Positions 3,171 to 42,508 of a stretch of 64,000 nucleotides of DNA are shown piece after piece. The stretch spans positions 3,019-67,018 of the forward strand of contig CAYFZD010000001.1 in the NCBI GenBank assembly GCA_964347565.1. Direction: 5' to 3'. This stretch comes from an uncultured Pseudomonadales bacterium (GTDB taxonomy: Bacteria; Patescibacteriota; Microgenomatia; UBA1400; UBA12108). The translations under genes and the position numbers were made by a program. Within the stretch, counting starts at the first letter, position 1, and every line of letters starts with the position of its first letter. Below the pieces are notes generated by a model. It made no database searches. It was not told the origin of the DNA and saw only the letters and a program-made list of their open reading frames with translations.

Positions 3171-4124
3171 ATGTCAAAAATTCTAATCACTGGTGGTGCC
3201 GGCTTCATTGGTAATCATCTGTGTGATCGCTTTCTAGCGGAAGGTCACGAAGTCATCTGTGTCGACAATTTCCTCTCCGGTTCTTCCGAGAATATCAAAC
3301 ATCTTGAGGGCAATCCCAATTTTACCTTGATCGAGCACGATGTTTGCCAGCCACTCACACAAAATCCGACTGGCTTAGACGCTATTTTCCATTTTGCCTG
3401 TCCAGCCTCCCCCAACCCTGCTAGTCCTGTGTCTTATCTCAACTTTCCGATAGAGACGCTGATGGTCACCACCCTGGGTTCTCAGCGGATGCTCGAGCTG
3501 GCTCACCAGAATCGTTGCCAAATAATCTTTGCTTCCACTAGCGAAGTCTATGGTGATCCTGCTGTGCACCCCCAGCCAGAGACTTACTGGGGACACGTCA
3601 ACCCCAACGGCCCTCGCTCTTGTTACGACGAAGGCAAAAGGGCCATGGAAGCCCTCGCCTTTGCCTACCATCGCCTGGGTCAAGCCCAGATCAAAGTCAT
3701 CCGCATCTTTAACACCTATGGCCCCAAGATGAGACTAGATGATGGTAGATTCACCATCAACTTGATCGATTGTTATCTGCACAACAAAGCCCTACCGATG
3801 TACGGGGATGGCTCTGCTACCCGTTCATTTTGCTACATCGACGATTTAGTTGAGGGGATCATGAAGATTTATCAGAGTGAAAAAGCCGTCGGCGAGGTTA
3901 TCAACCTCGGTAATCCTACAGAACTCACGATCACACAAGCAATCGAAATATTTGAAAATATTACTGGTAAAAAATTGTCCAAGGAGATGCGTGCGACCCT
4001 CACCGATGATCCTAAACGTCGCTGTCCAGACATTGGGAAAGCGAAAAAACTCCTAGATTGGGAACCAATGATAGATTTTGCGACTGGTATCAAGAAAACA
4101 CTCGAATCATACCAACATGCTTAA
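3171..4124 (+). CDS. uxs: UDP-glucuronate decarboxylase (UDP-xylose synthase)
   Basis: ILITGGAGFIGNHL plus the block YGDPAVHPQPETYWGHVNPNGPRSCYDEGKR, which is diagnostic for UXS/ArnA-decarboxylase type SDRs. ATG at 3171; the tracked ORF starts at TTG 3162. Confidence 0.85.
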   Translation: MSKILITGGAGFIGNHLCDRFLAEGHEVICVDNFLSGSSENIKHLEGNPNFTLIEHDVCQPLTQNPTGLDAIFHFACPASPNPASPVSYLNFPIETLMVTTLGSQRMLELAHQNRCQIIFASTSEVYGDPAVHPQPETYWGHVNPNGPRSCYDEGKRAMEALAFAYHRLGQAQIKVIRIFNTYGPKMRLDDGRFTINLIDCYLHNKALPMYGDGSATRSFCYIDDLVEGIMKIYQSEKAVGEVINLGNPTELTITQAIEIFENITGKKLSKEMRATLTDDPKRRCPDIGKAKKLLDWEPMIDFATGIKKTLESYQHA

Positions 4125-5292
4125 AATTGTCGTAGTCATTCCCACTTATAATGAATCAGGCAACGTCGCTCCAGTAACTTTGGCGCTAGACAAAGTTTTC
4201 CGGACTCTCAGAGATTATGATCCACATATTCTCTTCGTAGATGACAATTCTCCCGATGGCACCAGCCAGAAGATAGCACAGCTTATTGCTCGATATCCTT
4301 TTGTCCACATACTCAAGAACAAGCGTAAGGGTGGACTTGGCCATGCCTATAAAAAAGGTTTTACTTACGCCCTCGATAAACTCCACGCTGACATACTCTT
4401 CGAATTTGACGCGGATCTCCAGCACGACCCGCTCGTCATTCCCGACATGCTCAGAGCTATTGAAGATGGTGCTGACCTAGTGCTTGGCTCTCGTTACATC
4501 AGGGGAGGTGGCATTCCTTCCAAATGGCCCTGGTATCGAAAATTCCTCTCCGTCGTGGGCAACCTTTATATCAGGGTCATTATGGGTAACTTCCAGATTC
4601 ACGATTGGACTACCGGATACCGCGCCATTCGTGCTAAAGTAGTAGAGAGCCTCTTGCCACAAATGAACGGCACCTCCTTCACGGGATATGCCTGGCAAAT
4701 AGGTTTCTTGGTAAAAAGCCTCCAAGCAGGGGATAGAGTAACCGAAGTGCCTTTTGTTTTTACCGAACGCACAAGCGGTCACTCTAAGTTAGGCCCAGAA
4801 TATATTATTAACACCATGAGGTACATCATGAAAGTCAGGTTAAATCAAATCCTCCATAGTCGAATCCTGAAATTTGTCATGGTGGGAGGATTTGGTTCGC
4901 TTGTACAACTGACAGCTCTCCATTTTTATCGGTTATTCATCCAGACCAACTTAGGCCCGATTTCTCCCTATCAGATTGCACTGGTCTTGGCGATCGAGAC
5001 GGCCATCGTCAGCAACTTCACCTGGAGCAACCTCTGGACCTTCCGTGATCGCAAACTCAAACCAATCCAACTCCCTCTCAAATTCCTCCAGTTTAACTTA
5101 GCTTCTGGGGGTTCGCTCCTCCTCCAATTTATTATTGCTAGCCTAGGCGAGCGCTTCATCGGACTCTATACCATCTTTCAGATCTCCAAATTCTCTATCG
5201 ACACCGGCTTAGTCTATGCTGTAGTGGGGATTTTGATCGGTATGTTCTGGAATTTTTTCGCTTACACCCACCTAGTCTGGAAGAAAAAATAG
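4117..5292 (+). CDS. GT2 polyprenol-phosphate glycosyltransferase (DPM1/ArnC-like) fused to C-terminal GtrA-like 4-TM domain
   Basis: VVIPTYNESGN, FVDDNSPDGT and DADLQHDP motifs of Dpm1-type GT2. C-terminal 120 aa (ILKFVMVGGFGSLVQL...) has the GtrA-like topology. 8-nt overlap with uxs. Confidence 0.8.
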   Translation: MLKIVVVIPTYNESGNVAPVTLALDKVFRTLRDYDPHILFVDDNSPDGTSQKIAQLIARYPFVHILKNKRKGGLGHAYKKGFTYALDKLHADILFEFDADLQHDPLVIPDMLRAIEDGADLVLGSRYIRGGGIPSKWPWYRKFLSVVGNLYIRVIMGNFQIHDWTTGYRAIRAKVVESLLPQMNGTSFTGYAWQIGFLVKSLQAGDRVTEVPFVFTERTSGHSKLGPEYIINTMRYIMKVRLNQILHSRILKFVMVGGFGSLVQLTALHFYRLFIQTNLGPISPYQIALVLAIETAIVSNFTWSNLWTFRDRKLKPIQLPLKFLQFNLASGGSLLLQFIIASLGERFIGLYTIFQISKFSIDTGLVYAVVGILIGMFWNFFAYTHLVWKKK

Positions 5293-5293
5293 A

Positions 5294-6406
5294 CTACAGC
5301 AGCGCTCCCCAATTACTAATCGGTTGGATATTTCTAAGTACAAACTGCCAGCCCAGTAGATAAATAGGGATCAACATCAGCGCAATTCCCCACCAATACT
5401 TTCTCGGGATCCTCTCGATCAGTGGTGCGTATCCAAGTAGTGCTATTGGCGCAATCGGGAGGGCATATCGTGCTAAATCCCGGTGTGCCACAAATAGCAA
5501 AGTTGTCCCGTAGATTAGTCCCCATTTCTTGAGCATTGGCCAACGACCATTGACCATCGCTATCCCTACCCCGTAAAAGATGTATAGATAAATGATGTCC
5601 TCTCTCCACATATCGTTGATCCAGGTGGCCATATTCGAAAAAATCGAAAATGGCGGGAAAAATAAGTGCAGATTGTCACCAGAGTGAAAGTAGGCGAGAG
5701 GATCTCCATATCTCCAGCCGTAAAACCCAAATAACCCCACCAAAACAATCGGCATGAGTATGTAGGGAAGTAGGTCCTTGGGTCTACGCCACATACTCAA
5801 AAGATAAACACCAAAGAGTAAGATGCCTGGACTCCTAGTGAGCACCGCCAGTGCCCCAGCAACAGCACTAGGCCAGTATTTTTGTTTAATCGCCCAAGTT
5901 AGCGAGATGATCACAAGAAAAATAAATAGTGGTTCGTTGCTCCCGACTCCTCGGACTGAAAGCATGCGCGCAGGGAAAAACAGCCCGATCGTAGAAAGTA
6001 AAATAGCCAAATTTTTGTTTTTCAGGGTTGTGACAAAAAAGAAATATAACCCACCCGCCAACAGCAAATTCGACAAAATGATCGACAAAAGGAGTGCTTG
6101 TGGGGGTGTCAGAATGAAATCAAAAATCTTGATGAGACCTGCAAAAAGGGGGAAATGTGCGGCATAGTAAATTGGGTCGTTTCCCGTCAAAAATTGAGCG
6201 TTGATCGCTTCAATAGTTTTGGGGTTATATCCACTTTTTTCCACTACCAAGAAGTTTAATCCATCAAAATTCTGTACTACAGCCTCCATCCCTCGACGTG
6301 CAAAATCGATCCCCCAAAATTGACCTGTTTTGACCAAAAACGGTGCCCAGAAAACCATCAAGGAGAGACCTACGGCCATGAGTACGAGTAGCAAGTTACG
6401 CGCCAT
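5294..6406 (-). CDS. Polytopic membrane protein, PIG-V-like putative GT-C glycosyltransferase (paralog family A)
   Basis: About 9 predicted TM helices. Motif NFDGLNFL..EKSGY..AAHFPLFAGL is shared with 28.7-29.7k, 35431-36474 and 36489-37574. Confidence 0.55.
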   Translation of the reverse strand: MARNLLLVLMAVGLSLMVFWAPFLVKTGQFWGIDFARRGMEAVVQNFDGLNFLVVEKSGYNPKTIEAINAQFLTGNDPIYYAAHFPLFAGLIKIFDFILTPPQALLLSIILSNLLLAGGLYFFFVTTLKNKNLAILLSTIGLFFPARMLSVRGVGSNEPLFIFLVIISLTWAIKQKYWPSAVAGALAVLTRSPGILLFGVYLLSMWRRPKDLLPYILMPIVLVGLFGFYGWRYGDPLAYFHSGDNLHLFFPPFSIFSNMATWINDMWREDIIYLYIFYGVGIAMVNGRWPMLKKWGLIYGTTLLFVAHRDLARYALPIAPIALLGYAPLIERIPRKYWWGIALMLIPIYLLGWQFVLRNIQPISNWGALL

Positions 6407-6424: not shown

Positions 6425-7135
6425 ATGCCAAAAAAACTCTCAAGCCTCTCCATTTTCATGCCTGCTTACAACGAGGAGGGCAATATCGCAGCTACGATCA
6501 TGGACGCGACGAAGGCAGCTAAGACTGTGGCAAACGATTATGAGATCATTGTGGTTAATGATGGTTCGCGTGATAAAACTGTCGAGATCGTCACTGGTTT
6601 ATCCCAGTTAGACCCCCATATCCGACTCATCAATCATTCTAAAAACCGGGGCTACGGTGCCGCGGTCAAAACTGGCCTTGGAGCCTGTCGCAAGAACTGG
6701 ATATTCTTTACGGACTCTGATGGACAGTTTCATTACGATGAGCTAGCCAAGTTTGTCGTCGCCACTGACTCAGCGGATTTGGTCATGGGCTATAGACGCA
6801 AACGGATGGATCCATTTCACCGTGTCTTTGTCGCTCAAGTCCTCCTCAAAATCTGGAATTTTGTCTTATTTGGCCTCACGGTTCGCGATGTCGACTGTGC
6901 CTACAAACTATTCTCTCGTAAACTCCTCCGCGCTATCAAACTCAAGACCGAGAGTGCCATTACAGTCTCAGAATTCATTATCAAGGCCAAGGCCGCCGGT
7001 TTCCGCATCACCCAGCTGCCAGTACAACACTACCCCAGGAGGTTTGGCGAACAAACAGGGGGGAATTGGCGAGTGATAATGCGTGCAGCCAGGGAGAGCT
7101 TTCGCATGTACAAAGAATTACACCCTCGCTCATGA
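6425..7135 (+). CDS. GT2 glycosyltransferase (polyprenol-phosphate sugar synthase type)
   Basis: IFMPAYNEEGNI, IIVVNDGSRDKT and FTDSDGQ (DxD) motifs. Confidence 0.8.
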   Translation: MPKKLSSLSIFMPAYNEEGNIAATIMDATKAAKTVANDYEIIVVNDGSRDKTVEIVTGLSQLDPHIRLINHSKNRGYGAAVKTGLGACRKNWIFFTDSDGQFHYDELAKFVVATDSADLVMGYRRKRMDPFHRVFVAQVLLKIWNFVLFGLTVRDVDCAYKLFSRKLLRAIKLKTESAITVSEFIIKAKAAGFRITQLPVQHYPRRFGEQTGGNWRVIMRAARESFRMYKELHPRS

Positions 7136-8646
7136 AGTTTATCCGTCAACATTTGCTGATCATACTTGTACTCCTCTTCGCCCTATTTTTACGGACATAT
7201 AATCTGAGTGCAACAATGACTTTTTTGGAAGATGAGGGGAGGGATCTCCTGGTCGTCCACCGCATGCTTGACACGTTTAGACCCGCGTTGATTGGCCCCC
7301 AGACCTCGACAGGAAACATGTATCTGGGGCCACTCTATTATTACTTGATTACTCCTGCCTTGTTTCTCGCTCAGATGAATCCGCTTGGACCTGTTATTTT
7401 TATTGCTTTAACTGGAGTCTTGACTGCTTGGCTATTGTATTACTTGGGCACCAAGTGGTTTGGTAAATCCGCGGGCATGCTCGCCGCCCTCATGTACGCA
7501 CTCCTACCACTCCCAGTGATTTTTACGCGCAATTCATGGAACCCCAATCTAGCGCCGCTTATCTCTCTGCTCATGCTCGCTTACCTCGTCAAAATTGTTC
7601 AGCATAAAATCTTTGTCAAAAAAGATTTTCTAATTCTGGGTTTATTAGCTGGTGCCCTCGTCCAGCTGCACTATATGGCTCTCCTGTTTCTCGTCGGGGT
7701 CGGACTTGCCCTCATCTACTACCTGCACAACTCTCTCCCGACTATCTTGCGGGGAGTCTGTGTCGCGCTCGTTGGTTTTATCATCACGCTCTCACCCTTT
7801 ATTCTTTTTGAGATTCGCAATGATTACGTCAATACCCACGCACTCACCCGCTTTGTGATGGCCAAAGAGGAACACAACATCCGCTACTCGCTCCCGCTGA
7901 CCTTGTGGGCGAGCAAAGTCGAGAGCACCTCCGTGCGCGTTTTCGCGAGCTTGTTTGGCCGTGATGCCCTCACGAGAGATCCCGCAAGAGTCACCATTAC
8001 CCTCATTGCCTCTCTCCTCCTGGTCATGACATTACTAGTCATCCGCAAAAAACATGACTCCCCCAGCCGGATTTATCGGGTGCTTTTTTTGACGTTCATC
8101 ATCCCTCTCGCCTTAACCGGCATTTACCAGGAAAATATTCATCTACACTATCTAGGTTTTTTCTTCCCTCTGATCTACCTACTCATCGCCAAGTCTCGCT
8201 TCGCCTGGATATTTTTCGTCGTGTGCCTCTGCTATGCCAGCCCGCAACTCCTTAGTTATTTACGCTCAGACGGTACTAACCAAGTCATCCGCGCTAAAGA
8301 AGTTATCGAGTATATCCTGCGCGACACGGCAGGGCGACCATACAATATTGTGAGTTCACGTAGTACCTCCTCTACCCCTTATCAATATTTCTCCGCCATC
8401 TCTAGCTTTCCCGCCACCACAGAGGCAGTGCCAGACGTTTATTTGATTTGCCAGGGGGCACCCTGCAGCGACGAAGACGTGAACACCCCCTTCTTCTTCA
8501 TCACTGGTCAGGCTCACCCCGCCATCCGAGCTTATCTGGGACACCCGCTCTCCAATTATTTTGAGGGTGAGCGGACGCTCCTAAGCAATGATCACGTCTC
8601 TCACGGCGCTTGGGTCGCCAAAATAAATGTTAAACTAGAGCCATGA
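7132..8646 (+). CDS. GT-C family membrane glycosyltransferase (ArnT/PMT-like)
   Basis: More than 10 TM helices. First periplasmic loop has TFLEDEGRDLLV (DE motif). ATGA overlap with upstream GT2. Confidence 0.7.
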   Translation: MKFIRQHLLIILVLLFALFLRTYNLSATMTFLEDEGRDLLVVHRMLDTFRPALIGPQTSTGNMYLGPLYYYLITPALFLAQMNPLGPVIFIALTGVLTAWLLYYLGTKWFGKSAGMLAALMYALLPLPVIFTRNSWNPNLAPLISLLMLAYLVKIVQHKIFVKKDFLILGLLAGALVQLHYMALLFLVGVGLALIYYLHNSLPTILRGVCVALVGFIITLSPFILFEIRNDYVNTHALTRFVMAKEEHNIRYSLPLTLWASKVESTSVRVFASLFGRDALTRDPARVTITLIASLLLVMTLLVIRKKHDSPSRIYRVLFLTFIIPLALTGIYQENIHLHYLGFFFPLIYLLIAKSRFAWIFFVVCLCYASPQLLSYLRSDGTNQVIRAKEVIEYILRDTAGRPYNIVSSRSTSSTPYQYFSAISSFPATTEAVPDVYLICQGAPCSDEDVNTPFFFITGQAHPAIRAYLGHPLSNYFEGERTLLSNDHVSHGAWVAKINVKLEP

Positions 8647-9398
8647 AACCCTTCGTTTCCGTCATTCTCCCCAATTACAACGAACTAGAGAATCTCAAAC
8701 GTGGGGTCTTGCTCTCGATTTATAAATACTTGAATGGTCAGAAATTCTCCTGGGAAGTGATCATCTCCGATGACGGCTCCACTGACGCGAGTATTAATTT
8801 TATCGAAAAGTTTATTAAAGTTCACCCAGGATTCAAATTCCTCAAGAACCCTCACGCCGGCAAGCCCTTTGCCCTTGCGAGCGCCCTCAAAGCGGCCCGA
8901 GGTGAGTATGTTCTATTTACCGACATGGATCAATCTACCCCTATCAACCAACTCGAGAAATTGATCCCCTATACCAAGGATGGTTTCAAAGTGGTCATCG
9001 GTTCTCGCGGGATTCGCCGACGTGACTCGAGCCTACTGCGTCAGCTGGCTTCCGTCATCTTCTTGCTGGCGAGGAAAATATTCCTCTTGCGCAACATCAA
9101 AGATACCCAGTGTGGTTTTAAACTGCTCCAAGCTGATTTAGCAAGAAATATCTTTTCGCGCATGCGACTATTCGGGAGATCCAGTCAATCTGTTGGATGG
9201 AAAGTCACGGCCTACGACGTCGAGATGCTCTTCCTCGCAGAGAAACTAGGTCAAGAAATCCAGGAAGTGAGGGTAGTATGGCAAGACGAGGATACAAGCT
9301 CAGGCAAAAAACGCAATTTCATCAAAGAAAGTGTCGAGATGTTCACCGAGATCTTGCGAGTGAGCGTGAATGACATGTTGGGCAAATACAATGTCTAA
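8643..9398 (+). CDS. GT2 glycosyltransferase (DPM1-like)
   Basis: VSVILPNYNELENL, VIISDDGSTDAS and FTDMDQS motifs. ATGA overlap with upstream gene. Confidence 0.8.
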   Translation: MKPFVSVILPNYNELENLKRGVLLSIYKYLNGQKFSWEVIISDDGSTDASINFIEKFIKVHPGFKFLKNPHAGKPFALASALKAARGEYVLFTDMDQSTPINQLEKLIPYTKDGFKVVIGSRGIRRRDSSLLRQLASVIFLLARKIFLLRNIKDTQCGFKLLQADLARNIFSRMRLFGRSSQSVGWKVTAYDVEMLFLAEKLGQEIQEVRVVWQDEDTSSGKKRNFIKESVEMFTEILRVSVNDMLGKYNV

Positions 9399-10515
9399 AT
9401 TATTATTTTTTCTATGGTTTTTTGTTGCTTTGGTTTTATTTGTCTATAGTTACGGTTTTGTCGATTTCAACTTGACCCTCTCCTCCCATCCCTTCGTGAC
9501 GAGCTTTGTTTCCTGGTCACAGCAATTAGCCATGTTTCATCGCTCCACTTCACTCTACGTTTATTTAGGTCTGATAGTCCTCCTCTACCTCCTATACTCA
9601 CTTACCCTATTACTCTACAGACCCAAAACCTTTCCTTGGCTTCTTGTTTCTTTGCTCGCTTTTATTTTTTCTATTAGCTACCCCTTTCTCTCATCTGACG
9701 TCTTTAAGTATCTCTTCGCAGCGAAAGAACTCCTCCTCTACCACGCCAATCCCCACACCATCGCCCCGTGGGTCTTTGAGGGGGACACATGGCTCCGCTT
9801 CATGCGCTGGATCCATACTCCCAGTCCCTATGGGCTGACGATGACAGCCCTCGCCGTGCCATATTATCTCTTGGGATTTGGCAAATTTGTTCCCACCCTC
9901 TATCTTTTCAAGCTCGACCAGGTCTTTTGGTATGGGCTCTCGATTTGGGTGATCGGGAAACTGGGGGGCAAAAGAGCCCTACTCGCCCAGCTATTTTTCG
10001 CGCTCAATCCCCTCGTCCTCCTAGAATGGCTAGTCAATTCGCATAATGATGCCCCGATGATTTCTCTCCTCCTCCTCTCGCTTTACCTACTGACCCTCGG
10101 TCGCAAACTCCCCTCATTGGTCGCTCTCATCTTCTCTATCGGCATTAAGTACGTCACAATCTTTGCTTTACCATTTCTTTTTTTCAAGAAACTTACCCAA
10201 TCATTCATCGTCCATAGTTCATTGGCCATTTTATTCCTCGCTCCCTTGCTCTATCACTATTCCTATCAATATCAGCCTTGGTACGTGACCTGGCTCGTCC
10301 CGTTTGCCGCTCTCTCTGGCTCCACTTTGCTCATGTCACTCACCGCCGCCTATAGCCTCGGCGCGCTCCTGCGCTATATCCCTTTCATCCAGATCGGCTT
10401 GTGGGAGGGGACTGCTCGCTACTTTGCCCTCCTCACGTTTACACCACTCGTCCTCACCCTTATCTATTTTCTAGCCCTTCATCTGTTCAAGAAATCAGCC
10501 AAAAACCCGCTATAA
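9391..10515 (+). CDS. Polytopic membrane protein (putative glycan-assembly GT-C / unknown family)
   Basis: 374 aa with about 10 hydrophobic helices and a conserved loop SSDVFKYLFAAKELLLYHANP. 8-nt overlap with upstream GT2. Confidence 0.5.
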   Translation: MSKLLFFLWFFVALVLFVYSYGFVDFNLTLSSHPFVTSFVSWSQQLAMFHRSTSLYVYLGLIVLLYLLYSLTLLLYRPKTFPWLLVSLLAFIFSISYPFLSSDVFKYLFAAKELLLYHANPHTIAPWVFEGDTWLRFMRWIHTPSPYGLTMTALAVPYYLLGFGKFVPTLYLFKLDQVFWYGLSIWVIGKLGGKRALLAQLFFALNPLVLLEWLVNSHNDAPMISLLLLSLYLLTLGRKLPSLVALIFSIGIKYVTIFALPFLFFKKLTQSFIVHSSLAILFLAPLLYHYSYQYQPWYVTWLVPFAALSGSTLLMSLTAAYSLGALLRYIPFIQIGLWEGTARYFALLTFTPLVLTLIYFLALHLFKKSAKNPL

Positions 10516-10522
10516 TGACTTT

Positions 10523-12022
10523 ATGCAGTGGTTTCCCAGACTCAGGAAAATTGATTGGCTAATTATTTTTGGTCTGGTAGTTGGATTTTTAGTCCTAGTG
10601 ACAGCCAATCTCACGCGCCTGCCCATCTTTGTCGATGAAGCCATTTATTTGCGCTGGGCGCAGATCGCCTGGCATGATGCGTCCTGGAGATTTATTAGTT
10701 TGACCGACGGAAAACAACCATTCTACACTTGGTTCGTGATCCCTTTCCTCAAATTCATCGACGATCCACTCTACGCCGGACGATTTGCCTCCGGTGTTTC
10801 CGGGCTGATCTCGGTGCTGGGTATGGGATATCTCGGCTATCTACTAGGCAACAAAAAGACCGGGCTTCTAGCCATGATCATCACGGCCCTCTCTCCATAT
10901 TTGTTCTTCTATTATCGCTTTGGGGTAATGGAGTCTACGCTCGTAGCCGGCTCGATTTGGGTCTGTAATTTCTCTATCCTCCTCGCTCGTTCCCGCCGAC
11001 TCGACGTGGCCATGCTCCTAGGTATGATCACGGGGGCGACTATTTTGACAAAATCTTCTGGCATGTTTTTCCTCCTGCTGATCCCCGCGGCCTATTTACT
11101 CGATTTTGATATTAAAAAACTGTTCACTCGATCGACATTCAATTACCTATGTCTGGTCTTGGTGTCCTGGGTTATCGCGGGCGTGATGTACAATGTCCAG
11201 CGTCTCTCTCCATGGATGCACATGATCGGTCAAAAAAACGCCTTCTTCATCGTGCCCTACGCCGATATTTTTAACGAATTTGGGCGATTGTCCAACAACT
11301 TCCTGGACGTTTGGCGTTGGCAGATCGGCTACACTACTATTCCTGTTTTGATCCTTGCGACATGCGGATTATATTTGATGATCAGAACAGATCTGCGTAA
11401 AGCACTTTTCCTCCTGACCTGGTTGCTTGCACCCATGGTGGGTACAATTTTACTGGCTCGCCTATTTGCCCCCCGCTACGTAGTTTTTGTTACTCCCTTT
11501 ATCCTCTACTTTGCCGTTTATGCCCTGAGTCAAATCCGCTCACTCAAACACACCATTATCGTGACCTTAATTTTCCTGGTCATGCCACTTTCTCTCATTA
11601 CCAAACTGATTACCGACCCCATCAACTATCCCTACGTCTCTGTAGATGAGGGCTACGTCAACGGCTGGTCGGCCGGCAATGGTACCAAACAGATTGCAGA
11701 CTGGGCACTGGGTCATATGCGCCAAACCGGCAAGCCCATGACCATCTTCACCGAGGGTACCTTTGGCATCCTTCCCCACGGCCTGGAGCTTTATGTGGAC
11801 GGTAGGGTAGAGGGACTCACGATCACAGGGCTCTACCCTATTTCTCAGATTCCACCAAGTCACGCCCTCGAATCAGTCAAAACTAATCCAGAAACCTATC
11901 TCGTGCTAAATAACACCCAGACTGTCTCGCAATTACCTGGATTAGAGCTCGTGGGAGAGTATCACAAATTTGATCCCTCATACACCATGCGACTCTACCG
12001 GGTTCTGACACCGGTTAAATAG
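10523..12022 (+). CDS. GT-C family membrane glycosyltransferase (ArnT/PMT-like)
   Basis: N-terminal TM followed by the loop motif LPIFVDEAIYLRWAQ (DE), then many TM helices and a C-terminal soluble domain. Confidence 0.7.
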   Translation: MQWFPRLRKIDWLIIFGLVVGFLVLVTANLTRLPIFVDEAIYLRWAQIAWHDASWRFISLTDGKQPFYTWFVIPFLKFIDDPLYAGRFASGVSGLISVLGMGYLGYLLGNKKTGLLAMIITALSPYLFFYYRFGVMESTLVAGSIWVCNFSILLARSRRLDVAMLLGMITGATILTKSSGMFFLLLIPAAYLLDFDIKKLFTRSTFNYLCLVLVSWVIAGVMYNVQRLSPWMHMIGQKNAFFIVPYADIFNEFGRLSNNFLDVWRWQIGYTTIPVLILATCGLYLMIRTDLRKALFLLTWLLAPMVGTILLARLFAPRYVVFVTPFILYFAVYALSQIRSLKHTIIVTLIFLVMPLSLITKLITDPINYPYVSVDEGYVNGWSAGNGTKQIADWALGHMRQTGKPMTIFTEGTFGILPHGLELYVDGRVEGLTITGLYPISQIPPSHALESVKTNPETYLVLNNTQTVSQLPGLELVGEYHKFDPSYTMRLYRVLTPVK

Positions 12023-14814: not shown

Positions 14815-16284
14815 ATGAGCAGTCTAAACATCGATAACATCAAATTGAAGGCGTTTAAGGGAGTCTTTACCCTCACTTTCCGTCGCCTCATCCTCAAAGT
14901 GATCGACACGGTGGGTGTTATCATCCTTGCCCGCGCCCTCACTCAGGACGTCTTTGGGATTTTTGGTATTATCAGCTTCGTCGTCTTTACTTTTCTCTCA
15001 TTCTTTTCTGATATTGGTTTTGGCGCGGCACTCATCCAGAAAAAAGAAGAGCTCACTCAGAATGACATCCGCACTACCTTCACGATCCAACAGTCTCTCG
15101 TCACTCTACTCCTGATCATCGCTTGGCTTGCCTCACCCTCCATCTCCCACTTCTATAACTTGGGATTGCAGGGGATTTGGCTGATCCGCGTTCTCTCCCT
15201 CTCTCTCTTTATCACCTCTTTCAAAACTATTCCCTCGATCCTCCTGGAGCGGGAGTTGAGATTCGAGAAGCTCGTCATCCCAGAGATCATCGAGACCTTG
15301 GTTTATAACGCCATCGCTGTCTACATGGCTCTCCACGGATATGGAGTCTGGAGCTTGGTGATTGCGATCCTTGCTAGAGTAGTGACCGGTGCCCTCGCCC
15401 TCAATTTGCTCTCTCCTTGGCGTATTGGCTGGGCATACTCGGCTACTTCTGCCCGCGCACTCCTCTCCTTTGGCGTCCCTTACCAATTAAATAGTGTCTT
15501 GGCCCTCATCAAAGACAATATTACCCCCACTCTGATCGCCTATTGGTATGGTCCTGCCGCCGTGGGGTTTGTGAATTTGGCCCAAAATATCGCCACCCGC
15601 CCCATGGAGATCATCAACATTGTCTCTCGTGTGATGTTCCCAGCTTATTCACGTCTCCAGCATGACACCGAGAGACTCAAACGCTGGATCGAGAAATCGG
15701 TCTCATTCATGGCCTACCTCTATATGCCAGCCATCACCGGGCTCCTCATCACCGCTCGCCCCATCCTCGAGTATCTCTACGCCGATAAGTCAGCCAAATG
15801 GCTCCCTTCACTACCCACGCTCCTGCTTTTCTTGGCCGGCGCCTACCCGATCATTGTCACGACCACCTATACCAACGCACTCTATGCCCTGGGTAAGCCT
15901 AAGGTGGTCTTGGCGCTCATGGCGCTCTATACTACGCTCACTTGGGTACTTGGAGTCCCACTGATCTACAAATATGGCTACGTCGGTATCGCCTTAGCCG
16001 GCTTTATCATTACTTATATAACCTTCCCGATCGTGATCCGAGAAATGAACAAAGTCGTTCGCATCTCCACCTGGGATTCACTAAAGCGTCCTCTACTAGC
16101 CAGTCTGATCATGGCGGGTGTGACCTATTATGTCAACGCCACCTTTACCCACTCACTACCCTCGCTCCTTTTCACCTGTATGGTGGGAATGGTAACATAT
16201 CTCTTGGCCATCTACTTGCTAGACGGATCCAAGCTGAAAAATGAGTTTGCTAGCTGGTTTGCGCTCATCGGTCGAAGATCCTGA
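14815..16284 (+). CDS. wzx: Polysaccharide biosynthesis protein / oligosaccharide flippase (MOP superfamily, Wzx-like)
   Basis: 489 aa with about 12-14 TM helices. N-terminus KGVFTLTFRRLILKVIDTVGVIILARAL is typical of Wzx/PST family proteins. Confidence 0.7.
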   Translation: MSSLNIDNIKLKAFKGVFTLTFRRLILKVIDTVGVIILARALTQDVFGIFGIISFVVFTFLSFFSDIGFGAALIQKKEELTQNDIRTTFTIQQSLVTLLLIIAWLASPSISHFYNLGLQGIWLIRVLSLSLFITSFKTIPSILLERELRFEKLVIPEIIETLVYNAIAVYMALHGYGVWSLVIAILARVVTGALALNLLSPWRIGWAYSATSARALLSFGVPYQLNSVLALIKDNITPTLIAYWYGPAAVGFVNLAQNIATRPMEIINIVSRVMFPAYSRLQHDTERLKRWIEKSVSFMAYLYMPAITGLLITARPILEYLYADKSAKWLPSLPTLLLFLAGAYPIIVTTTYTNALYALGKPKVVLALMALYTTLTWVLGVPLIYKYGYVGIALAGFIITYITFPIVIREMNKVVRISTWDSLKRPLLASLIMAGVTYYVNATFTHSLPSLLFTCMVGMVTYLLAIYLLDGSKLKNEFASWFALIGRRS

Positions 16285-16307: not shown

Positions 16308-17927
16308 ATGAAAGAAAAAATCTCAGTTATTATCCCCACGGTGAACGCCTTTGAAGAACTCGATCTTGCGATCGAGAGTATCAAAAAAAACTCTGACCAC
16401 CCCATCGAATTTGTCATTGTCATCGACCCCGATATGAATACCGGCAAAGTAAACGATGATATCCTCAAAGTCTGTAAAAAACAAGGAGTCAAAGCCTGGG
16501 TAAACAAAGAGAATTTGGGACCCTACGGCAACTGGAACCGGGGAGCTGAGGTAGCCACAACCGATTGGCTCGTGTTTGCGACCGACGACCAATATTTTGC
16601 GCCTCACTGGGACTCTAATTTGCTCAAGTATTGGCAGCCCAAGAGACTTATTTCAGGTCGTCTCATCGAGCCTGGGATCATCCCCGTCTACAAAACCAAT
16701 ATCCAGCAAGATTTTGGGGTGCTACCCTCTGAATTTAGGGAAAAAGATTTTATCGCTTGGTGCCAAAGGCGTAAGGTAACTGGTTATACCCCAGACGGAT
16801 TCTTCATTCCCATGCTCCAGAAAAGGGCTGATTATGACGTTCTCGGTCACTATCCGGTCGCGGGCAAATTTGGGACTAGTACTGCCGTTAGTAACGACTA
16901 TCTCTATGTTCAAGCCGCACTCAAAAAAGGGTATGAGTTTGGCACCGCAGAAGACTCCTATTCTTACCATTTCCAAGCCAGTTCCTGGAAGAAAAAAACC
17001 TTGAAGCCGAGTGTCGCGGCGATTGTCCTCACCAAAAATGAAGAGCGTGACCTCGCCAAGTGTCTGAAATCTCTCGCTTGGGTCAGCGATATTTTTATCA
17101 TCGACTCTGGCTCCTCTGACAAGACTCTCTCCATCGCCAAACAATTTAAGGCCAAAATATTCACGCGAGAACTCGACAATTTTAGTGCCCAGCGCAACTT
17201 CGCCCTCTCCAAAGTAGGGAGTTACAACTGGGTACTGATGGTCGACGCCGATGAAGTGGTAGAGCCGGAGCTAGCCAAAGAACTGCAATTTTTTGCCAAA
17301 GATATCTACTTAGACGGAGTAAACGTCCCGCGCAAGAACTATATTTTTGGCAGATGGATCGAACATACCGACTGGTATCCGGATCATCGCCTCGTCTTTT
17401 TCCGTCCCAAGATGGTGCAATATGCTGGCGACGTGCATGAGCGACCTACGTTCGTGAAGGGGAACGGGACGACTGCGACCTCAACCCACCATCTACTCCA
17501 CCACAACTACGACAGTGTGCGTGAGTTCGTCGCGAAAAATCTCGTGGACTACCCAATGCAATATGCCCAAGTTTTACACGCCGACAAAGTCAAGTTCACA
17601 GCTCTAGACTTACTTTCCAAACCCCTCGCTGAGTTTATGCGACGCTTCTTCCTGACATCGGGCTACAAGGACGGTCTCTATGGTCTCATCTTGAGTGCCC
17701 TCATGGGTGTCCAAACACTTGTGGCCTACTGTTACCTCTGGGAGCTCCAGGGCAAGCGGGAGGAGCTCACGACACAGGAAACACAATCCCTATTTAACTC
17801 ACTGCGTGGCAAATCTAGTGAGCTATCCTACTGGCTCACCACTTTGGCCATAGAAAGTGCCTCCGGTGCTACCAAACTCTTCCACCGAGCTCATCGCAAA
17901 GCCTTAAAACTAGTGAAAGGCCTATGA
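16308..17927 (+). CDS. Tandem double-GT2 glycosyltransferase
   Basis: Domain 1: ISVIIPTVNAFEEL...FATDDQ. Domain 2 begins near aa 230: VAAIVLTKNEERDL...IIDSGSSDKT...VDADEVV, with a WaaE/KdtX-like amphipathic tail GYKDGLYGLIL...YLWELQG. Confidence 0.8.
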   Translation: MKEKISVIIPTVNAFEELDLAIESIKKNSDHPIEFVIVIDPDMNTGKVNDDILKVCKKQGVKAWVNKENLGPYGNWNRGAEVATTDWLVFATDDQYFAPHWDSNLLKYWQPKRLISGRLIEPGIIPVYKTNIQQDFGVLPSEFREKDFIAWCQRRKVTGYTPDGFFIPMLQKRADYDVLGHYPVAGKFGTSTAVSNDYLYVQAALKKGYEFGTAEDSYSYHFQASSWKKKTLKPSVAAIVLTKNEERDLAKCLKSLAWVSDIFIIDSGSSDKTLSIAKQFKAKIFTRELDNFSAQRNFALSKVGSYNWVLMVDADEVVEPELAKELQFFAKDIYLDGVNVPRKNYIFGRWIEHTDWYPDHRLVFFRPKMVQYAGDVHERPTFVKGNGTTATSTHHLLHHNYDSVREFVAKNLVDYPMQYAQVLHADKVKFTALDLLSKPLAEFMRRFFLTSGYKDGLYGLILSALMGVQTLVAYCYLWELQGKREELTTQETQSLFNSLRGKSSELSYWLTTLAIESASGATKLFHRAHRKALKLVKGL

Positions 17928-18850
17928 AAAAATCTCTCAAGATAAAGCACGCGGTCGTGCTTGTCAACTACAAAGTCTCAAAGGACACGATTGCTTGTGT
18001 GAAATCGATAGAAAAATGCAAAGATGCTCCCCATATTATCGTTGTCGACAATGGCTCGAGCGCAGAAGTAGTCCAAGAATTACGTGAAGCCTGTCCTGGT
18101 CTAGACATCATTGCCTCACCCACGAATGTCGGTTTCTCAGCGGGGAATAACCTTGGCATCAAAAAAGCCCTCAAGCTTGGTGCCCAGGTCGTCTATATCT
18201 TAAACAACGACACCCTCGTCGATCCCAACCTGTTTTTCCGGAGCTTCCGCTACGTGGCGGGCAAAAATCGCATCGCCGGGGGCAAAATCTACTATGCCAA
18301 AGGATACGAATTCCACGACGATCAAAAAGGGCAGGGGAATATCCTTTGGTACGCTGGGGGATACTTTAACTGGGAGAGTGTGATCGCGACTCATTACGGC
18401 GTCGACGAGGTCGACCATGGGCAGTACGACAAAATTAGGCCCGTCGACTTTATCACCGGATGTTTCCTCGCCGTCCCCCGCCAGGTTTTTCACAAGATTG
18501 GATTACTTGACGAACCTTTCTTCCTCTACCTCGAAGACACGGATTTCTGTCTTCACGCCAAAAAATTGGGTATCGAGGTCATGTACAACCCCAACTTAGT
18601 AATTTATCACTGCAACTCGAGCTCCACGGTCGCGGGGAGTCCACTGGTCGACTATTACATCACCCGTAACCGCTTCTTTATCGGCCGTCGCTATGGTACT
18701 CTCCGCCTCCGTTTTGCGCTTTTGCGCGAGGCACTATTTAGGAACTGGAGTTCGAGCGTCCGTCGCCTGGCATTTTTTGACTATCTATTTGGTAGAATGG
18801 GTAATAGAAATGAAGCAATCTTCGCCCTTGCGGCCAAATTGGATAAATAG
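17924..18850 (+). CDS. GT2 glycosyltransferase (rhamnosyltransferase WbbL-like)
   Basis: AVVLVNYKVSKDT, IIVVDNGSS and NVGFSAGNNLGI motifs. ATGA overlap with upstream gene. Confidence 0.8.
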   Translation: MKKSLKIKHAVVLVNYKVSKDTIACVKSIEKCKDAPHIIVVDNGSSAEVVQELREACPGLDIIASPTNVGFSAGNNLGIKKALKLGAQVVYILNNDTLVDPNLFFRSFRYVAGKNRIAGGKIYYAKGYEFHDDQKGQGNILWYAGGYFNWESVIATHYGVDEVDHGQYDKIRPVDFITGCFLAVPRQVFHKIGLLDEPFFLYLEDTDFCLHAKKLGIEVMYNPNLVIYHCNSSSTVAGSPLVDYYITRNRFFIGRRYGTLRLRFALLREALFRNWSSSVRRLAFFDYLFGRMGNRNEAIFALAAKLDK

Positions 18851-22184: not shown

Positions 22185-22186
22185 AT

Positions 22187-41785: not shown

Positions 41786-42508
41786 CTACGAATATTTTCG
41801 CTTAATCGCAAAAATCGCCGAAAATGACCTAAGTAATTCCATCAAATTGGCATTCGACTTGCCTTTCTCCCTATCTACAAATTTGAACGGAACTTCTACA
41901 AATCTAAAGCCATGCCGATAAAGTAGATAGAGAGTTTCGGATAATGCGATAAAGCCTTTTTGCTGGATGCGGCTGTGTACGATCAGTTTGACTGCCTCCC
42001 TTGGGTAACAGCGATAGCCATTAGTACAGTCACTAACCGGCACGTGTAAAATAGTACGGATATATGTGTTGGCAAATCTGCTCATGACCTTTCTTCTTAT
42101 TGACCAGTTCATAATTTTGCCGCCCCTGGTGTAGCGAGACGCCACCACAACAGTATTTGGTTCTCTTTTGTCCAAAATCCTAGGCATGTCCGTAGGCTTA
42201 TGGGAAAAATCGGCATCCATCTCAATAAAATACTCTATTTTTGGATTTTTGAGAGCCTCTTCAAATCCCGAGAGGACCGCCCCTCCTCGACCAGATTTTG
42301 ACCTTCTTACAATTAGAGAAACGCGACCATCTTTGTTGGATATGTACTTGCGCACTATCTCCGCGGTACCATCAGGTGAGTTGTCGTCCACAACATAGAT
42401 GTATGCACCCTCCACATTACTGCGTATTTGCTCGATCAAGTCCAGGATATTCTCCTTTTCGTTGTAGGTAGGGATTATTACCCCGATTGGTTCAAGTAAC
42501 TTCTTCAT
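41786..42508 (-). CDS. GT2 glycosyltransferase (dolichyl/polyprenyl-phosphate mannose synthase-like)
   Basis: GVIIPTYNEKENI, YVVDDNSPDGT and EMDADFSH motifs. Confidence 0.8.
   Translation of the reverse strand: MKKLLEPIGVIIPTYNEKENILDLIEQIRSNVEGAYIYVVDDNSPDGTAEIVRKYISNKDGRVSLIVRRSKSGRGGAVLSGFEEALKNPKIEYFIEMDADFSHKPTDMPRILDKREPNTVVVASRYTRGGKIMNWSIRRKVMSRFANTYIRTILHVPVSDCTNGYRCYPREAVKLIVHSRIQQKGFIALSETLYLLYRHGFRFVEVPFKFVDREKGKSNANLMELLRSFSAIFAIKRKYS

Follow-up and report, generated by a model that had tools for sequence, protein, structure and literature searches.

In a 64-kb stretch of DNA (the window) from an uncultivated Microgenomates-group bacterium with small cells (Candidate Phyla Radiation/Patescibacteria), a surface-sugar locus places glycosyltransferase genes beside genes for polytopic membrane proteins. 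Does this order reflect paired enzymes, with each synthase of a lipid-linked sugar serving the membrane transferase encoded next to it? An initial annotation had proposed as much, describing at least five modules in which a Dpm1/ArnC/GtrB-type GT2 gene is followed by a GT-C-like membrane gene. The open reading frames behind this proposal are all present; its five GT2 genes are all GT2 by Pfam, and its seven membrane partners are all GT-C-like, five of them above the Pfam gathering score (7132, 10523, 18810, 27858 and 29713; genes are named by their first coordinate). The window as a whole contains six polyprenyl-phosphate-type synthases and 16 GT-C-like genes, and it is probably a cell-envelope glycan locus in which several multi-component transmembrane glycosylation systems are packed together.

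Polyprenyl-Phosphate-Type Synthases

Six genes belong to the Dpm1/ArnC/GtrB subclass (4117, 6425, 8643, 41786, 51344 and 62101), and for all six the best PDB sequence matches are ArnC, GtrB and DPMS. At the head of the locus, and kept in relatives, is a DPMS-type polyprenyl-phosphate glycosyltransferase (4117..5292, plus strand) in which a GT2 domain is joined with a GtrA/DPMS transmembrane domain (Pfam Glycos_transf_2 and GtrA_DPMS_TM); it matches Pyrococcus DPMS (PDB 5mlz) over residues 13-365 (E = 8.5e-50). A GtrB-type enzyme (51344..52285, minus strand) matches GtrB (5ekp) over residues 7-311 (E = 2.5e-56) and carries two C-terminal TM helices (232-250 and 268-286). Two further minus-strand genes, a Dpm1-like one (41786..42508; PDB DPMS 7.4e-27, ArnC 4.5e-14; NCBIfam PpgS, ArnC) and an AglJ/Dpm1-like one (62101..62805; PDB DPMS 1.6e-20, ArnC 1.9e-17; TIGR04182 AglJ, 124.9 bits), are without a GT-C neighbor. 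The latter is the first gene of an operon whose last gene encodes a polytopic protein (56896-58656) with no family or profile match.

The remaining two, GT2-a and GT2-b, have no TM segment. GT2-a (6425..7135, plus strand), Dpm1/PpgS-like by PDB, NCBIfam and Foldseek comparison, matches ArnC (9.5e-18), GtrB (2.4e-14) and DPMS (1.2e-8) in alignments that reach residue ~216-227; its best NCBIfam matches are ArnC, PgfS, Dol-P-hexose transferase and PpgS, and its N-terminus from 6425 is conserved among homologues. When its AF2 model (pLDDT 79.9) was searched with Foldseek, the best 24 PDB matches were all ArnC, GtrB or DPMS, over ~225-240 aligned columns. GT2-b (8643..9398, plus strand) matches DPMS (6.5e-11) and ArnC (3e-10) as a single sequence; its family profile (35 sequences) ranks DPMS (3.9e-31), GtrB (1.6e-27) and ArnC (2.3e-24) first, in alignments extending through an invariant K-D-T-Q-C-G-F-K motif.

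The lack of TM helices in GT2-a and GT2-b would also suit ordinary cytoplasmic assembly, in which both act as conventional Leloir transferases and lengthen an oligosaccharide carried on polyprenyl diphosphate within the cell. The locus also encodes a Wzx flippase and an ABC-2 transporter, such as Wzx/Wzy-type and ABC-dependent pathways use. The polytopic proteins would then be polymerases, ligases, oligosaccharyltransferase-like enzymes or non-catalytic scaffolds or, alternatively, would take donors only from the TM-anchored DPMS- and GtrB-type synthases. We regard such assembly as unlikely. Dpm1 and PpgS are polyprenyl-phosphate synthases without a TM segment. GacI, acting with GacJ, is another (PMC8035078). 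By sequence, profile and fold, GT2-a and GT2-b match the three solved polyprenyl-phosphate enzymes best, in alignments that cover the acceptor half, whereas those of another GT2, GT2-d, cover the nucleotide-binding half only. Moreover, family searches of the window genes returned no Wzy or O-antigen-ligase match.

The subclass label had been given to five GT2 genes, but it fits only three (6425, 8643 and 51344). GT2-c (17924..18850, plus strand) is a WbbL/GlfT-type GT2 (TIGR01556 rhamnosyltransferase, 73.6 bits) with galactofuranosyltransferase 9dtp as its sole PDB match (7.5e-7), and it was rejected as a synthase on these grounds. GT2-d (26962..27855, plus strand) is a generic GT2 (Glyco_tranf_2_3, MftF/EpsD-like; Pfam, NCBIfam); even its family profile matches DPMS, GtrB and ArnC at positions ~2-125 only, the N-terminal nucleotide-binding half, its longer matches being ppGalNAc-transferases, and it too was rejected by sequence. 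The initial annotation had itself named such affiliations as evidence against its proposal. Modules 3 (17924) and 4 (26962) are thus not supported as synthase/GT-C pairs, whereas modules 1, 2 and 5 are supported by best PDB matches, GT-C-like neighbors and neighborhoods that recur in diverged relatives. Three synthases had been overlooked (4117-5292, 41786-42508 and 62101-62805), the first of which adjoins a GT-C gene in a pair conserved in relatives; the count of at least five was thus roughly right by accident.

GT-C Genes

The 16 GT-C-like genes, nine of them absent from the initial annotation, span at least five subfamilies: PMT_2, MptA/B-GT87, PTPS-related, PIG-V-like and DUF2079-related. 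Assignment was based on Pfam matches above the gathering score (PMT_2, 26.1; Mannosyl_trans2, 22.4), a precomputed MptA_B_family match, profile-profile links and acidic residues after TM1. Convergent with the DPMS gene is a PIG-V-like GT-C membrane protein (5294..6406, minus strand; eight predicted TM segments) with an FDG motif, D48-G49 being conserved in 16 homologues. By BLAST it matches 36489 and the PIG-V-like domain of 27858-29720, and by hhalign the PMT_2 family of 10523 (90.5%).

The segment 6425-12022 reads synthase, GT-C, synthase, GT-C, GT-C. Its first GT-C gene (7132..8646, plus strand; ~10 TM segments) is of PMT_2 type (29.9 bits against a cut-off of 26.1), with D34 and D38, in the loop after TM1, conserved in 29 homologues. 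The second (9391..10515, plus strand), found in some relatives only, is of MptA/MptB (GT87-like) type (precomputed PF26314 MptA_B_family match; TIGR03459, 3.9e-6); an S-x-D-[VIL]-F-x-Y loop is conserved in seven homologues, and hhalign relates it to the 7132 family (80.7%). The third (10523..12022, plus strand) is again of PMT_2 type (35.9 bits), with D38-E39 invariant after TM1 in 26 homologues. These are followed on the same strand by a PTPS_related/AftD-like gene (12026-13480; Pfam PTPS_related, 40.3 bits) and a GT-C-like gene with a weak PMT_2 match below the cut-off (13467-14813; 19.6 bits), which show hhalign links of 96.8% and 86.9% to the 7132 family and a conserved H29-D30. The same operon then encodes a Wzx/MOP-type flippase (14815..16284, plus strand; Pfam Polysacc_synt_3, 213 bits), whose position is conserved in relatives.

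Farther downstream, all on the plus strand, the ArnT-like GT-C gene (18810..20243; PMT_2, 40.0 bits; ArnT PRK13279, 63.6 bits) is no conserved partner of GT2-c: in three relatives there is no ArnT-like gene between the orthologues of GT2-c and GT2_20230, and the next gene is a GT2. A GT87 GT-C-like gene (23821-25083; 30.4 bits) and a GT-C-like paralogue of 7132 (25601-26947; BLAST E = 1.7e-12, hhalign 99.3%) follow; a 174-aa gene sits between the two. The product of 27858..29720, listed as a membrane partner, does have a GT-C domain (PIG-V-like, C-terminal; Mannosyl_trans2, 47.8 bits) but is no plain partner, as a WbbL-like GT2 domain (Glycos_transf_2) is fused at its N-terminus. This fusion is conserved in at least 50 clusters; in two relatives a stand-alone PIG-V-like protein (~370 aa) occupies its position, and the orthologue of the next gene, PMT_2-type 29713..31320 (57.3 bits), keeps its place in both. 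The series ends with a GT-C-like gene combining PTPS_related and methyltransferase domains (32014-34422), a GT4 gene (34419-35450) and two PIG-V-like GT-C-like genes (35431-36474 and 36489-37574), as assigned by Pfam. The GT-C-like genes of this stretch show BLAST paralogy to 12026, 27858 and 5294, with hhalign links of 97.4% and 100% to the 5294 family.

In the minus-strand module, a GT-C-fold membrane protein of a small DUF2079-related family (52282..53808), with D37 as its conserved loop acidic residue, is encoded directly upstream of the GtrB-type gene; the order is thus GT-C (53808->52282) then GT2 (52285->51344), the reverse of that first described. A paralogue (49030..50556, plus strand) shares 45% identity (BLAST E = 3.6e-157; DUF2079 weak at 16.2 bits). 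Sugar-nucleotide genes lie alongside, including GMD (459 bits, above its cut-off), Ugd, SDR enzymes and RfbH (55581-56906, plus strand; PRK15407, 621.4 bits; cut-off 423). Next to the module, together with RfbH, are genes for a CDP-glucose 4,6-dehydratase-like protein (53805-54776, minus strand; TIGR02622, 201.7 bits) and a glucose-1-phosphate cytidylyltransferase-like protein (54761-55537, minus strand; TIGR02623, 276.5 bits, below the cut-off of 300.25), and in one relative the DUF2079-like, GtrB-type and CDP-sugar genes form one operon. Given this proximity to CDP-hexose pathway genes, the sugar of the GtrB module (51344-53808) may derive from a CDP-sugar.

Gene Order and Pairing

Tight coupling had been taken as a sign of stoichiometric pairs. 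Stop and start codons do overlap at most of the junctions concerned, with ATGA-type 4-nt overlaps at 7132/7135, 8643/8646 and 52282/52285, 8-nt overlaps at 9391/9398 and 29713/29720, and a 41-nt overlap at 18810/18850, where the start codon of the 18810 gene is uncertain; 27855->27858 (2 nt) and 10515->10523 (7 nt) are instead gaps. However, 29 of the 48 same-strand junctions across the window overlap, so overlap says nothing specific about GT2/GT-C pairs. When the order of the window's 59 genes was shuffled, GT2|GT-C junctions averaged 7.5, fewer than the 13 in the actual order (P = 0.009). When only polyprenyl-phosphate-type GT2s are counted, four of six adjoin a GT-C gene, with 3.0 expected (P = 0.33), which in this GT-C-dense locus does not exceed chance.

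A core order of DPMS, PIG-V-like, GT2-a, PMT_2, GT2-b, MptA/B-like, PMT_2, PTPS-related, Wzx is kept in Patescibacteria by the closer of 80 metagenome loci collected around homologues of GT2-b, with identities as low as 38%. The same order is found in a relative whose GT2-a is 78% identical, and many loci repeat the DPMS(+)/PIG-V-like(-) arrangement. In Patescibacteria loci, among them those of Woesebacteria and Saccharibacteria, the gene after GT2-a is of PMT_2 type; outside Patescibacteria, the gene after its homologues (~40% identity) mostly encodes a soluble protein. The upstream neighbors of GT2-b are polytopic in 28 of 35 assessable cases, its downstream neighbors polytopic or GT-C-like in 19-21 of 34; in relatives the gene usually found downstream is the 10523-type PMT_2 gene. 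The 7132-type PMT_2 gene occurs in one to three copies upstream of GT2-b among relatives, and the gene preceding it is GT2-a in four loci, DPMS in four and PIG-V-like in eight.

Because these combinations differ between loci, 1:1 pairing is unproven, and with six synthases for 16 GT-Cs the donors are probably shared; the stoichiometric reading is not supported by these observations. The shifting neighbors, and the GT-C genes that likewise adjoin the non-synthase GT2s 17924, 26962 and 31317, also fit the cytoplasmic alternative, under which GT2 and GT-C genes would alternate as members of one shared pathway and not as donor/user pairs.

Proposed Mechanism and Comparison With Known Systems

Under the preferred reading, that of packed transmembrane glycosylation systems, the six Dpm1/ArnC/GtrB-type enzymes would each charge polyprenyl phosphate with one sugar, taken from a nucleotide sugar, at the cytoplasmic face. 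The lipid-linked monosaccharide would be flipped, with the GtrA-type domain of the DPMS gene and Wzx 14815 as candidate flippases; no GtrA, SMR or MATE flippase is encoded by a gene of its own in the 64-kb window. Outside, the 16 GT-C-fold transferases would spend the lipid-linked sugar on lengthening or decorating a surface glycan or a glycoprotein, the lipid-linked acceptor being presumably made and exported by soluble GT2 and GT4 enzymes, Wzx and the ABC-2 transporter.

Protein O-glycosylation follows the same donor logic and differs in the acceptor only: the PMT_2-type GT-Cs would modify surface proteins (S-layer, pilins, Ser/Thr-rich regions) in place of a polysaccharide. PMT enzymes of actinobacteria and GtrB plus GT-C systems of streptococci glycosylate proteins, a paper on streptococcal O-glycosylation reportedly discusses GtrB and GT-C enzymes, and a low-complexity secreted protein is encoded at 62888-63967. 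Nevertheless, we consider this acceptor quite improbable, as PMT_2 also includes ArnT and the GT-Cs that glycosylate teichoic acid and rhamnan (PMC8035078), the accompanying Wzx, ABC-2 transporter, pyruvyl transferase, methyltransferases and many soluble GTs resemble a polysaccharide locus, and 16 GT-Cs in five subfamilies exceed the number in protein glycosylation systems described so far.

A parallel is the GacI/J/K/L system, in which a TM-less synthase, as in GT2-a and GT2-b, acts with a Wzx-type flippase (PMC8035078); no GacJ/DPM3-like anchor gene was identified here for either synthase. Adjacent GT-A/GT-C pairs and GT-Cs of PMT_2 type likewise belong to the organization described for transmembrane glycosylation systems (PMC8035078). 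The mechanism is already known, and what is unusual about this locus is its density, in an uncultivated lineage.

Gene Content and Setting of the Locus

The window corresponds to bases ~3253-67252 of a 134,480-bp metagenome contig (ENA ERZ27247837 k141_119302), and the close homologues of its proteins carry the source names Microgenomates group and Candidatus Woesebacteria, both belonging to the Candidate Phyla Radiation (Patescibacteria). Glycan synthesis accounts for nearly all of the 59 genes. Thirteen contain a GT2 domain and four are of the GT4 type; these are accompanied by a Wzx flippase, an ABC-2 transporter, methyltransferases, a pyruvyl transferase and many polytopic membrane proteins. 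The nucleotide-sugar enzymes comprise a UDP-glucose dehydrogenase, a true GDP-mannose 4,6-dehydratase (459 bits), several SDR enzymes, a UDP-GlcNAc 2-epimerase and an RfbF/G/H-like set.

Several other features accompany the glycan genes. In the middle of the locus (21741-22802) are genes for a Trp-repressor-like protein and a class-I glutamine amidotransferase, and the position of the former is matched in the related loci L169 and L170. A gene for a “23S rRNA-intervening sequence protein” (38398-38784; PF05635, 123.6 bits) is located between the ABC-2 permease and ATPase genes. The product of an ORF at 62888-63967 has a TM segment at its N-terminus and then a long low-complexity region rich in E, K, Q and T; it may be located at the cell surface and serve as a substrate for glycosylation. 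The G+C content is 0.39-0.45 at 40001-56000, compared with 0.45-0.51 at 1-40000. This low-G+C section, which carries the pyruvyl transferase, methyltransferases and a GtrB-type synthase with its membrane partner, may by analogy with O-antigen loci be a variable or acquired part. GC skew is below zero in all 2-kb bins across 1-64000 (cumulative -4.16), and its negative peaks over membrane-protein genes at 8-16 kb and 36-38 kb probably reflect the codon composition of hydrophobic proteins.

Synthase-Type GT2 Enzymes

The initial annotation had proposed five GT2 genes as polyprenyl-phosphate-sugar synthases of the Dpm1/ArnC/GtrB type, each followed by a GT-C-like membrane gene: module 1 (6425-7135 with 7132-8646), module 2 (8643-9398 with 9391-10515 and 10523-12022), module 3 (17924-18850 with 18810-20243), module 4 (26962-27855 with 27858-29720 and 29713-31320) and, on the minus strand, module 5 (51344-52285 with 52282-53808). 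All of the listed ORFs are present. PF00535 was found above cut-off in these five GT2s and in three further genes, which are named here, like others below, by their start positions (4117, 41786 and 62101). Each GT2 was compared with all PDB chains, and for six of the eight, namely 6425, 8643, 51344, 4117, 41786 and 62101, polyprenyl-phosphate enzymes are the nearest relatives of known structure, and the homology continues through the acceptor half.

The GtrB-type GT2 of module 5 (51344-52285, minus strand) aligns with GtrB from end to end at 2.5e-56, its two TM helices (232-250 and 268-286) included. The product of 6425-7135 (GT2-a) matches ArnC (9.5e-18), GtrB (2.4e-14) and DPMS (1.2e-8), with alignments reaching residue ~216-227. 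Its predicted structure (pLDDT 79.9) contains helices at 135-149 and 215-232; the best 24 Foldseek matches are without exception ArnC, GtrB or DPMS, in alignments to these of ~218-242 columns for a model of 236 residues. The database gene call for GT2-a begins at Met12 of the 236-aa product in the window. The product of 8643-9398 (GT2-b) matches DPMS (6.5e-11) and ArnC (3e-10) as a single sequence, and DPMS (3.9e-31), GtrB (1.6e-27) and ArnC (2.3e-24) rank first with a profile of 35 homologues. The profile alignment passes through an invariant K-D-T-Q-C-G-F-K motif, the DTQCGFK part of which may resemble Alg5. The DxD metal site is invariant in both proteins (D97/D99 in GT2-a and D94/D96 in GT2-b). 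Neither possesses a TM segment, while 51344 has two and 4117 a GtrA-type TM domain. GT2-a is also highly conserved, with 70-90% identity across >100 clusters and 3580 matches at E <= 1e-10; in the related locus L002 it is better conserved (405 of 528 bits) than its GT-C neighbor (637 of 1115 bits).

Modules 3 and 4 gave a different result. The sole PDB match of 17924-18850 (GT2-c) is a galactofuranosyltransferase (7.5e-7), and its best NCBIfam model is TIGR01556, “rhamnosyltransferase”. For 26962-27855 (GT2-d), DPMS, GtrB and ArnC match only the nucleotide-binding half (~2-125), even when a profile is used, and the longer matches are to ppGalNAc-transferases. Within the window, synthase-type GT2s match each other in BLAST, often over most of the protein, whereas their matches to 26962 extend only to ~residue 100. 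GT2s lying outside the polyprenyl-phosphate group had been named in advance as the finding that would count against the proposal; the PDB and profile matches place both 17924 and 26962 there by sequence, and they were rejected as synthases. The assignment to the lipid-phosphate subclass thus holds for modules 1, 2 and 5 on PDB, profile and fold matches and fails for modules 3 and 4. Conversely, three synthase-type GT2s had been overlooked, bringing the total to six: 4117-5292, a GT2 with a GtrA/DPMS TM domain that is a full-length homologue of Pyrococcus DPMS (8.5e-50), and, on the minus strand, 41786-42508 (DPMS, 7.4e-27) and the AglJ/Dpm1-like 62101-62805 (DPMS, 1.6e-20; AglJ model, 125 bits).

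GT-C Membrane Proteins

GT-Cs are polytopic proteins with ~7-13 TM helices (PMC11127046, PMC8035078). Grouping of the polytopic proteins by Pfam, BLAST and profile-profile comparison (hhalign) yielded 16 GT-C-like genes in the window: six PMT_2-like (7132, 25601, 10523, 29713, 18810 and 13467), two MptA/B-GT87-like (9391 and 23821), two PTPS-related or AftD-like (12026 and the N-terminal domain of 32014), four PIG-V-like (5294 on the minus strand, the C-terminal domain of 27858, 35431 and 36489) and two DUF2079-related (49030 and, on the minus strand, 52282), the last two being 45% identical to each other. The membrane partners proposed initially all prove to be GT-C-like. All are polytopic by hydropathy segments; PMT_2 exceeds the Pfam cut-off in 7132, 10523, 18810 and 29713, Mannosyl_trans2 (PIG-V) was found in the C-terminal half of 27858-29720, and a precomputed MptA_B_family match exists for 9391-10515. 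When the three-dimensional fold of the partner without a Pfam match, 52282-53808, was tested, it came out as GT-C; the AF2 model of this product is helical through residue ~415.

A conserved acidic residue in the loop after TM1 is the usual signature of GT-Cs (PMC8035078). Such residues are conserved across homologues in 7132 (D34/D38), 10523 (D38-E39), 12026 (H29-D30), 5294 (D48), 9391 (D103) and 52282 (D37, invariant), and we infer that this loop faces outside. A relaxed Pfam search returned nothing usable for 25601, 5294, 36489 and 56896-58656; hhalign placed the first three among the GT-Cs and left the fourth unplaced. The latter gene, on the minus strand, encodes a 586-aa polytopic protein and closes the operon that starts with the AglJ/Dpm1-like GT2 (62101-62805); its product has no Pfam match, no profile match and no homologue within the fetched loci.

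Two of the GT-C domains occur in fused proteins. At 27858-29720, a WbbL-like GT2 domain is joined to the PIG-V-like domain, and this fusion is kept in at least 50 protein clusters; in the Microgenomates loci L169 and L170, the corresponding position is occupied by an unfused PIG-V-like protein, preceded by a distinct 299-aa GT2. At 32014-34422, a single 802-aa ORF combines a PTPS-related GT-C domain with a C-terminal SAM-methyltransferase domain. The TTG start of this ORF overlaps the preceding gene by 77 nt, so the real start is probably further downstream.

Gene Order and Conservation

The stop and start codons of the proposed partners had been described as overlapping, and this tight coupling as a sign of stoichiometric donor-synthase/transferase pairs. 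Most pairs do overlap, by 4 or 8 nt; small gaps separate 27855 from 27858 and 10515 from 10523, and in the minus-strand module 5 the membrane gene lies upstream of the GT2. However, 29 of the 48 same-strand junctions in the window overlap, so overlap is uninformative on specific coupling and was discarded as a sign of it. Junctions between a GT2 and a GT-C gene are more frequent than in shuffled gene orders (13 observed vs 7.5 expected, P = 0.009), and a GT-C neighbor was found for four of the six synthase-type GT2s (3.0 expected, P = 0.33). As 16-17 of the 59 genes are GT-C-like, adjacency alone is weak evidence.

Conservation in relatives provides stronger evidence. Synteny was taken from a metagenome scan, since a scan of genome contigs with GT2-a gave one close relative; most of its matches were at ~40%, in other phyla, and had no GT-C neighbor. 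Exact look-ups of two window proteins led to short contigs that widened the context no further. One relative, whose GT2-a is 78% identical, matches the gene order of the window between Ugd and the double GT2. The metagenome scan covered 80 loci around GT2-b homologues; the nearer of these, down to 38% identity, share a core with the order DPMS, PIG-V-like (minus strand), GT2-a, PMT_2 (one to three copies), GT2-b, MptA/B-like (optional), PMT_2, PTPS-related, Wzx, double GT2, GT2-c, GT2. In close homologues, the gene directly upstream of GT2-b is polytopic in 28 of the 35 assessable cases, and the downstream gene is polytopic or GT-C-like in 19-21 of 34. A PMT_2-type gene follows GT2-a in Patescibacteria loci, including those of Woesebacteria and Saccharibacteria, while the ~40% homologues in Chloroflexota, Acidobacteriota and other phyla are mostly without one.

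Linkage between synthase and GT-C is conserved in relatives for modules 1, 2 and 5, as well as for the DPMS gene and its PIG-V-like neighbor. This last pair (4117-6406), convergent and situated to the left of the focal segment, is kept in many relatives and amounts to an additional synthase/GT-C module, absent from the original list. Module 3 lacks such conservation: the orthologue of GT2-c in L091, L101 and L111 is directly adjoined by the following GT2, and no GT-C intervenes. The order of module 4 (GT2-d, PIG-V-like, PMT_2, GT2, PTPS-related) is conserved, yet GT2-d lies outside the synthase subclass.

The upstream neighbor of the PMT_2 gene is GT2-a in four loci, DPMS in four and PIG-V-like in eight; because it varies, pair boundaries cannot be read from gene order, and GT2-a and 7132 are ruled out as an obligate pair. 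The generality of the overlaps, this varying neighbor and the count of six synthases to 16 GT-Cs together argue against stoichiometric 1:1 pairs at the level of gene counts and order. There is precedent for one synthase serving two GT-Cs, e.g., GttA with GtlB and GttB (PMC8035078).

The GtrB Module and Its CDP-Hexose Genes

In the segment 49030-56906, the two DUF2079-related paralogues flank the GtrB-type gene, and RfbF-, RfbG- and RfbH-like genes, resembling those of the CDP-3,6-dideoxyhexose pathway, lie alongside. The RfbH match (621 bits) is above cut-off and the RfbF-like match (276 bits) just under it; the RfbG-like match scores 202 bits. In L163, module 5 occurs as one operon of nucleotidyltransferase, dehydratase, DUF2079-like, GtrB-type, DegT-family and SDR genes, and in L166 two DUF2079-like paralogues surround a GtrB-sized GT2.

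Neither membrane protein reaches the gathering score of DUF2079 (PF09852): 52282 has no match, and 49030 scores 16.2 bits against a cut-off of 28.2. Ten of the 21 members of the 52282 family match DUF2079 at E <= 0.1 (best 8.2e-10), and at E <= 0.001 the family has 584 representatives out of 1.84 billion. On these sequence relationships, the 52282/49030 group would best be described as a small DUF2079-related family. No GT2 fusion was found among its longer members; a GDSL lipase domain occurs in one member. GtrB-type enzymes have been described with UDP-sugars as donors (PMC11127046), and it would be unusual for such an enzyme to make its lipid donor from a CDP-sugar.

Proposed Mechanism and Sugars

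The cytoplasmic synthases would generate polyprenyl-phosphate-monosaccharides, which would be flipped across the membrane, and the sugars would then be transferred on the outer face by the GT-Cs. Candidate flippases are limited to the GtrA_DPMS_TM domain fused to 4117-5292 and the Wzx gene at 14815-16284; no stand-alone GtrA, SMR or MATE match occurs among the annotated window genes. The ratio of six synthases to 16 GT-Cs, together with the presence of MptA/B-, AftD- and PIG-V-like families, suggests that the GT-Cs may build a backbone as well as side chains, by analogy with mycobacterial lipoglycans. Possible sugars of the left-hand operon are a GDP-6-deoxyhexose and either UDP-glucuronate or UDP-xylose, and for the GtrB module the RfbH, RfbF-like and RfbG-like matches point to a CDP-derived 3,6-dideoxyhexose as a possibility.

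A more far-reaching proposal, which we consider rather unlikely to hold as a whole, is that the main envelope glycan of Microgenomates is built largely outside the membrane by 16 GT-Cs fed by about six polyprenyl-phosphate-sugar donors, with one of these donors, a polyprenyl-phosphate-linked 3,6-dideoxyhexose or its precursor, being formed by the GtrB-type enzyme from a CDP-sugar and consumed by the new DUF2079-related GT-C. Microgenomates genomes are small, and assembly by many GT-Cs at such a scale is otherwise known from mycobacterial lipoarabinomannan and arabinogalactan. We know of no lipid-linked donor of the 3,6-dideoxyhexose type described so far.

Significance

The original observation of repeated synthase/GT-C modules is therefore confirmed in part, and its interpretation is supported for modules 1, 2 and 5 but not for modules 3 and 4 or for 1:1 pairing. 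The mechanism is well known, and genomes with three separate GT-A/GT-C pairs have already been described; as the principle is established, the value of the locus lies in its scale, lineage and new family members. Its unusual points are the density of 16 GT-Cs and six synthases in 64 kb, the lineage, the fusion of a GT2 with a PIG-V-like domain, and the linkage of a DUF2079-related GT-C to CDP-hexose genes and a GtrB-type synthase. A search of the open literature found no paper on GT-C or mannosyltransferase arrays in the Candidate Phyla Radiation (Patescibacteria) and nothing relevant on DUF2079.

To our knowledge, the envelope chemistry of these bacteria is essentially uncharted. They probably live attached to host cells, which makes it likely that their surface glycans play a part in attachment. 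The conserved locus, with six predicted synthases and 16 GT-Cs, predicts a complex glycan built outside the membrane and supplies concrete genes and candidate catalytic residues for heterologous expression. The DUF2079-related family with its GtrB-type synthase and CDP-hexose genes, as well as the conserved GT2/PIG-V-like fusion, are candidates for a wider GT-C classification.

Comparison With Known Systems

Pentofuranose side-chain systems consist of a PPPRS, a MATE flippase and a GT136 GT-C (PMC11127046). The window shares with them the predicted use of a polyprenyl-phosphate-linked monosaccharide by a GT-C outside the membrane and the presence of auxiliary sugar-modifying enzymes; it differs in that its synthases are GT2s rather than PRPP-dependent PPPRS and in having no MATE flippase.

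With respect to the Gtr systems of O-antigen glucosylation and the Arn system of lipid A modification, the product of 51344 resembles GtrB of GtrA/GtrB/GtrC in aligning over its full length, both TM helices included. GT2-a is nearest to ArnC in sequence and predicted fold, 18810 is ArnT-like, and, as in arn, donor-making genes lie within the operon. Unlike in GtrB/GtrC and ArnC/ArnT, the GT-C beside the GtrB-type gene is DUF2079-related and of neither GtrC nor ArnT type. The nearby precursor genes belong to a CDP-hexose pathway, whereas GtrB-type enzymes have been described with UDP-sugars (PMC11127046), and the window has no GtrA or ArnE/F gene.

The eukaryotic and archaeal dolichol-phosphate pathways (Dpm1/DPMS and Alg5 serving ALG3/9/12, ALG6/8/10, PMT and PIG-M/V) have counterparts in the DPMS homologue and the PIG-V-like and PMT-like GT-Cs. 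Here, however, the genes form a bacterial operon, oligosaccharyltransferase is represented in the window by weak sub-threshold STT3 matches only, and the lipid carrier is presumably of undecaprenyl type rather than dolichol.

Mycobacterial and corynebacterial lipomannan, lipoarabinomannan and arabinogalactan are assembled by Ppm1 with PimE, MptA, MptB, MptC, Emb and Aft enzymes, with many GT-Cs building the glycan outside the membrane from few polyprenyl-phosphate-sugar donors. The window likewise encodes MptA/B-family, GT87 and AftD-like (PTPS-related) proteins, a relationship at the family level only. Its annotated genes include no DPPRS, DprE1/E2 (decaprenyl-phospho-arabinose) or PIM genes, the lineage is unrelated, and the genes lie in a single locus, whereas the mycobacterial ones are dispersed.

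Gram-positive bacteria possess multi-component transmembrane glycosylation systems such as CsbB/GtcA/YfhO, GtlA/GtlB, CsdA-F/CflA and GacI/GacJ/GacK/GacL (PMC8035078, PMC5836110). These combine a GT-A polyprenyl-phosphate-sugar synthase with a GT-C, often of the PMT_2 type, usually encoded by adjacent genes; several pairs within a genome, three in L. lactis and three in B. subtilis, may share one flippase (PMC8035078). In the GacI/J/K/L variant, the synthase is without a TM segment and the flippase is of the Wzx type (PMC8035078), an arrangement that the focal operon resembles. In comparison with the Gram-positive systems, the window has neither a stand-alone GtrA/GtcA gene nor a GacJ-like partner, and its host is a Candidate Phyla Radiation bacterium. 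Its MptA/B-like, PIG-V-like, PTPS-related and DUF2079-related GT-Cs are unreported in those systems, and, unlike them, it packs 16 GT-Cs and six synthases into one locus.
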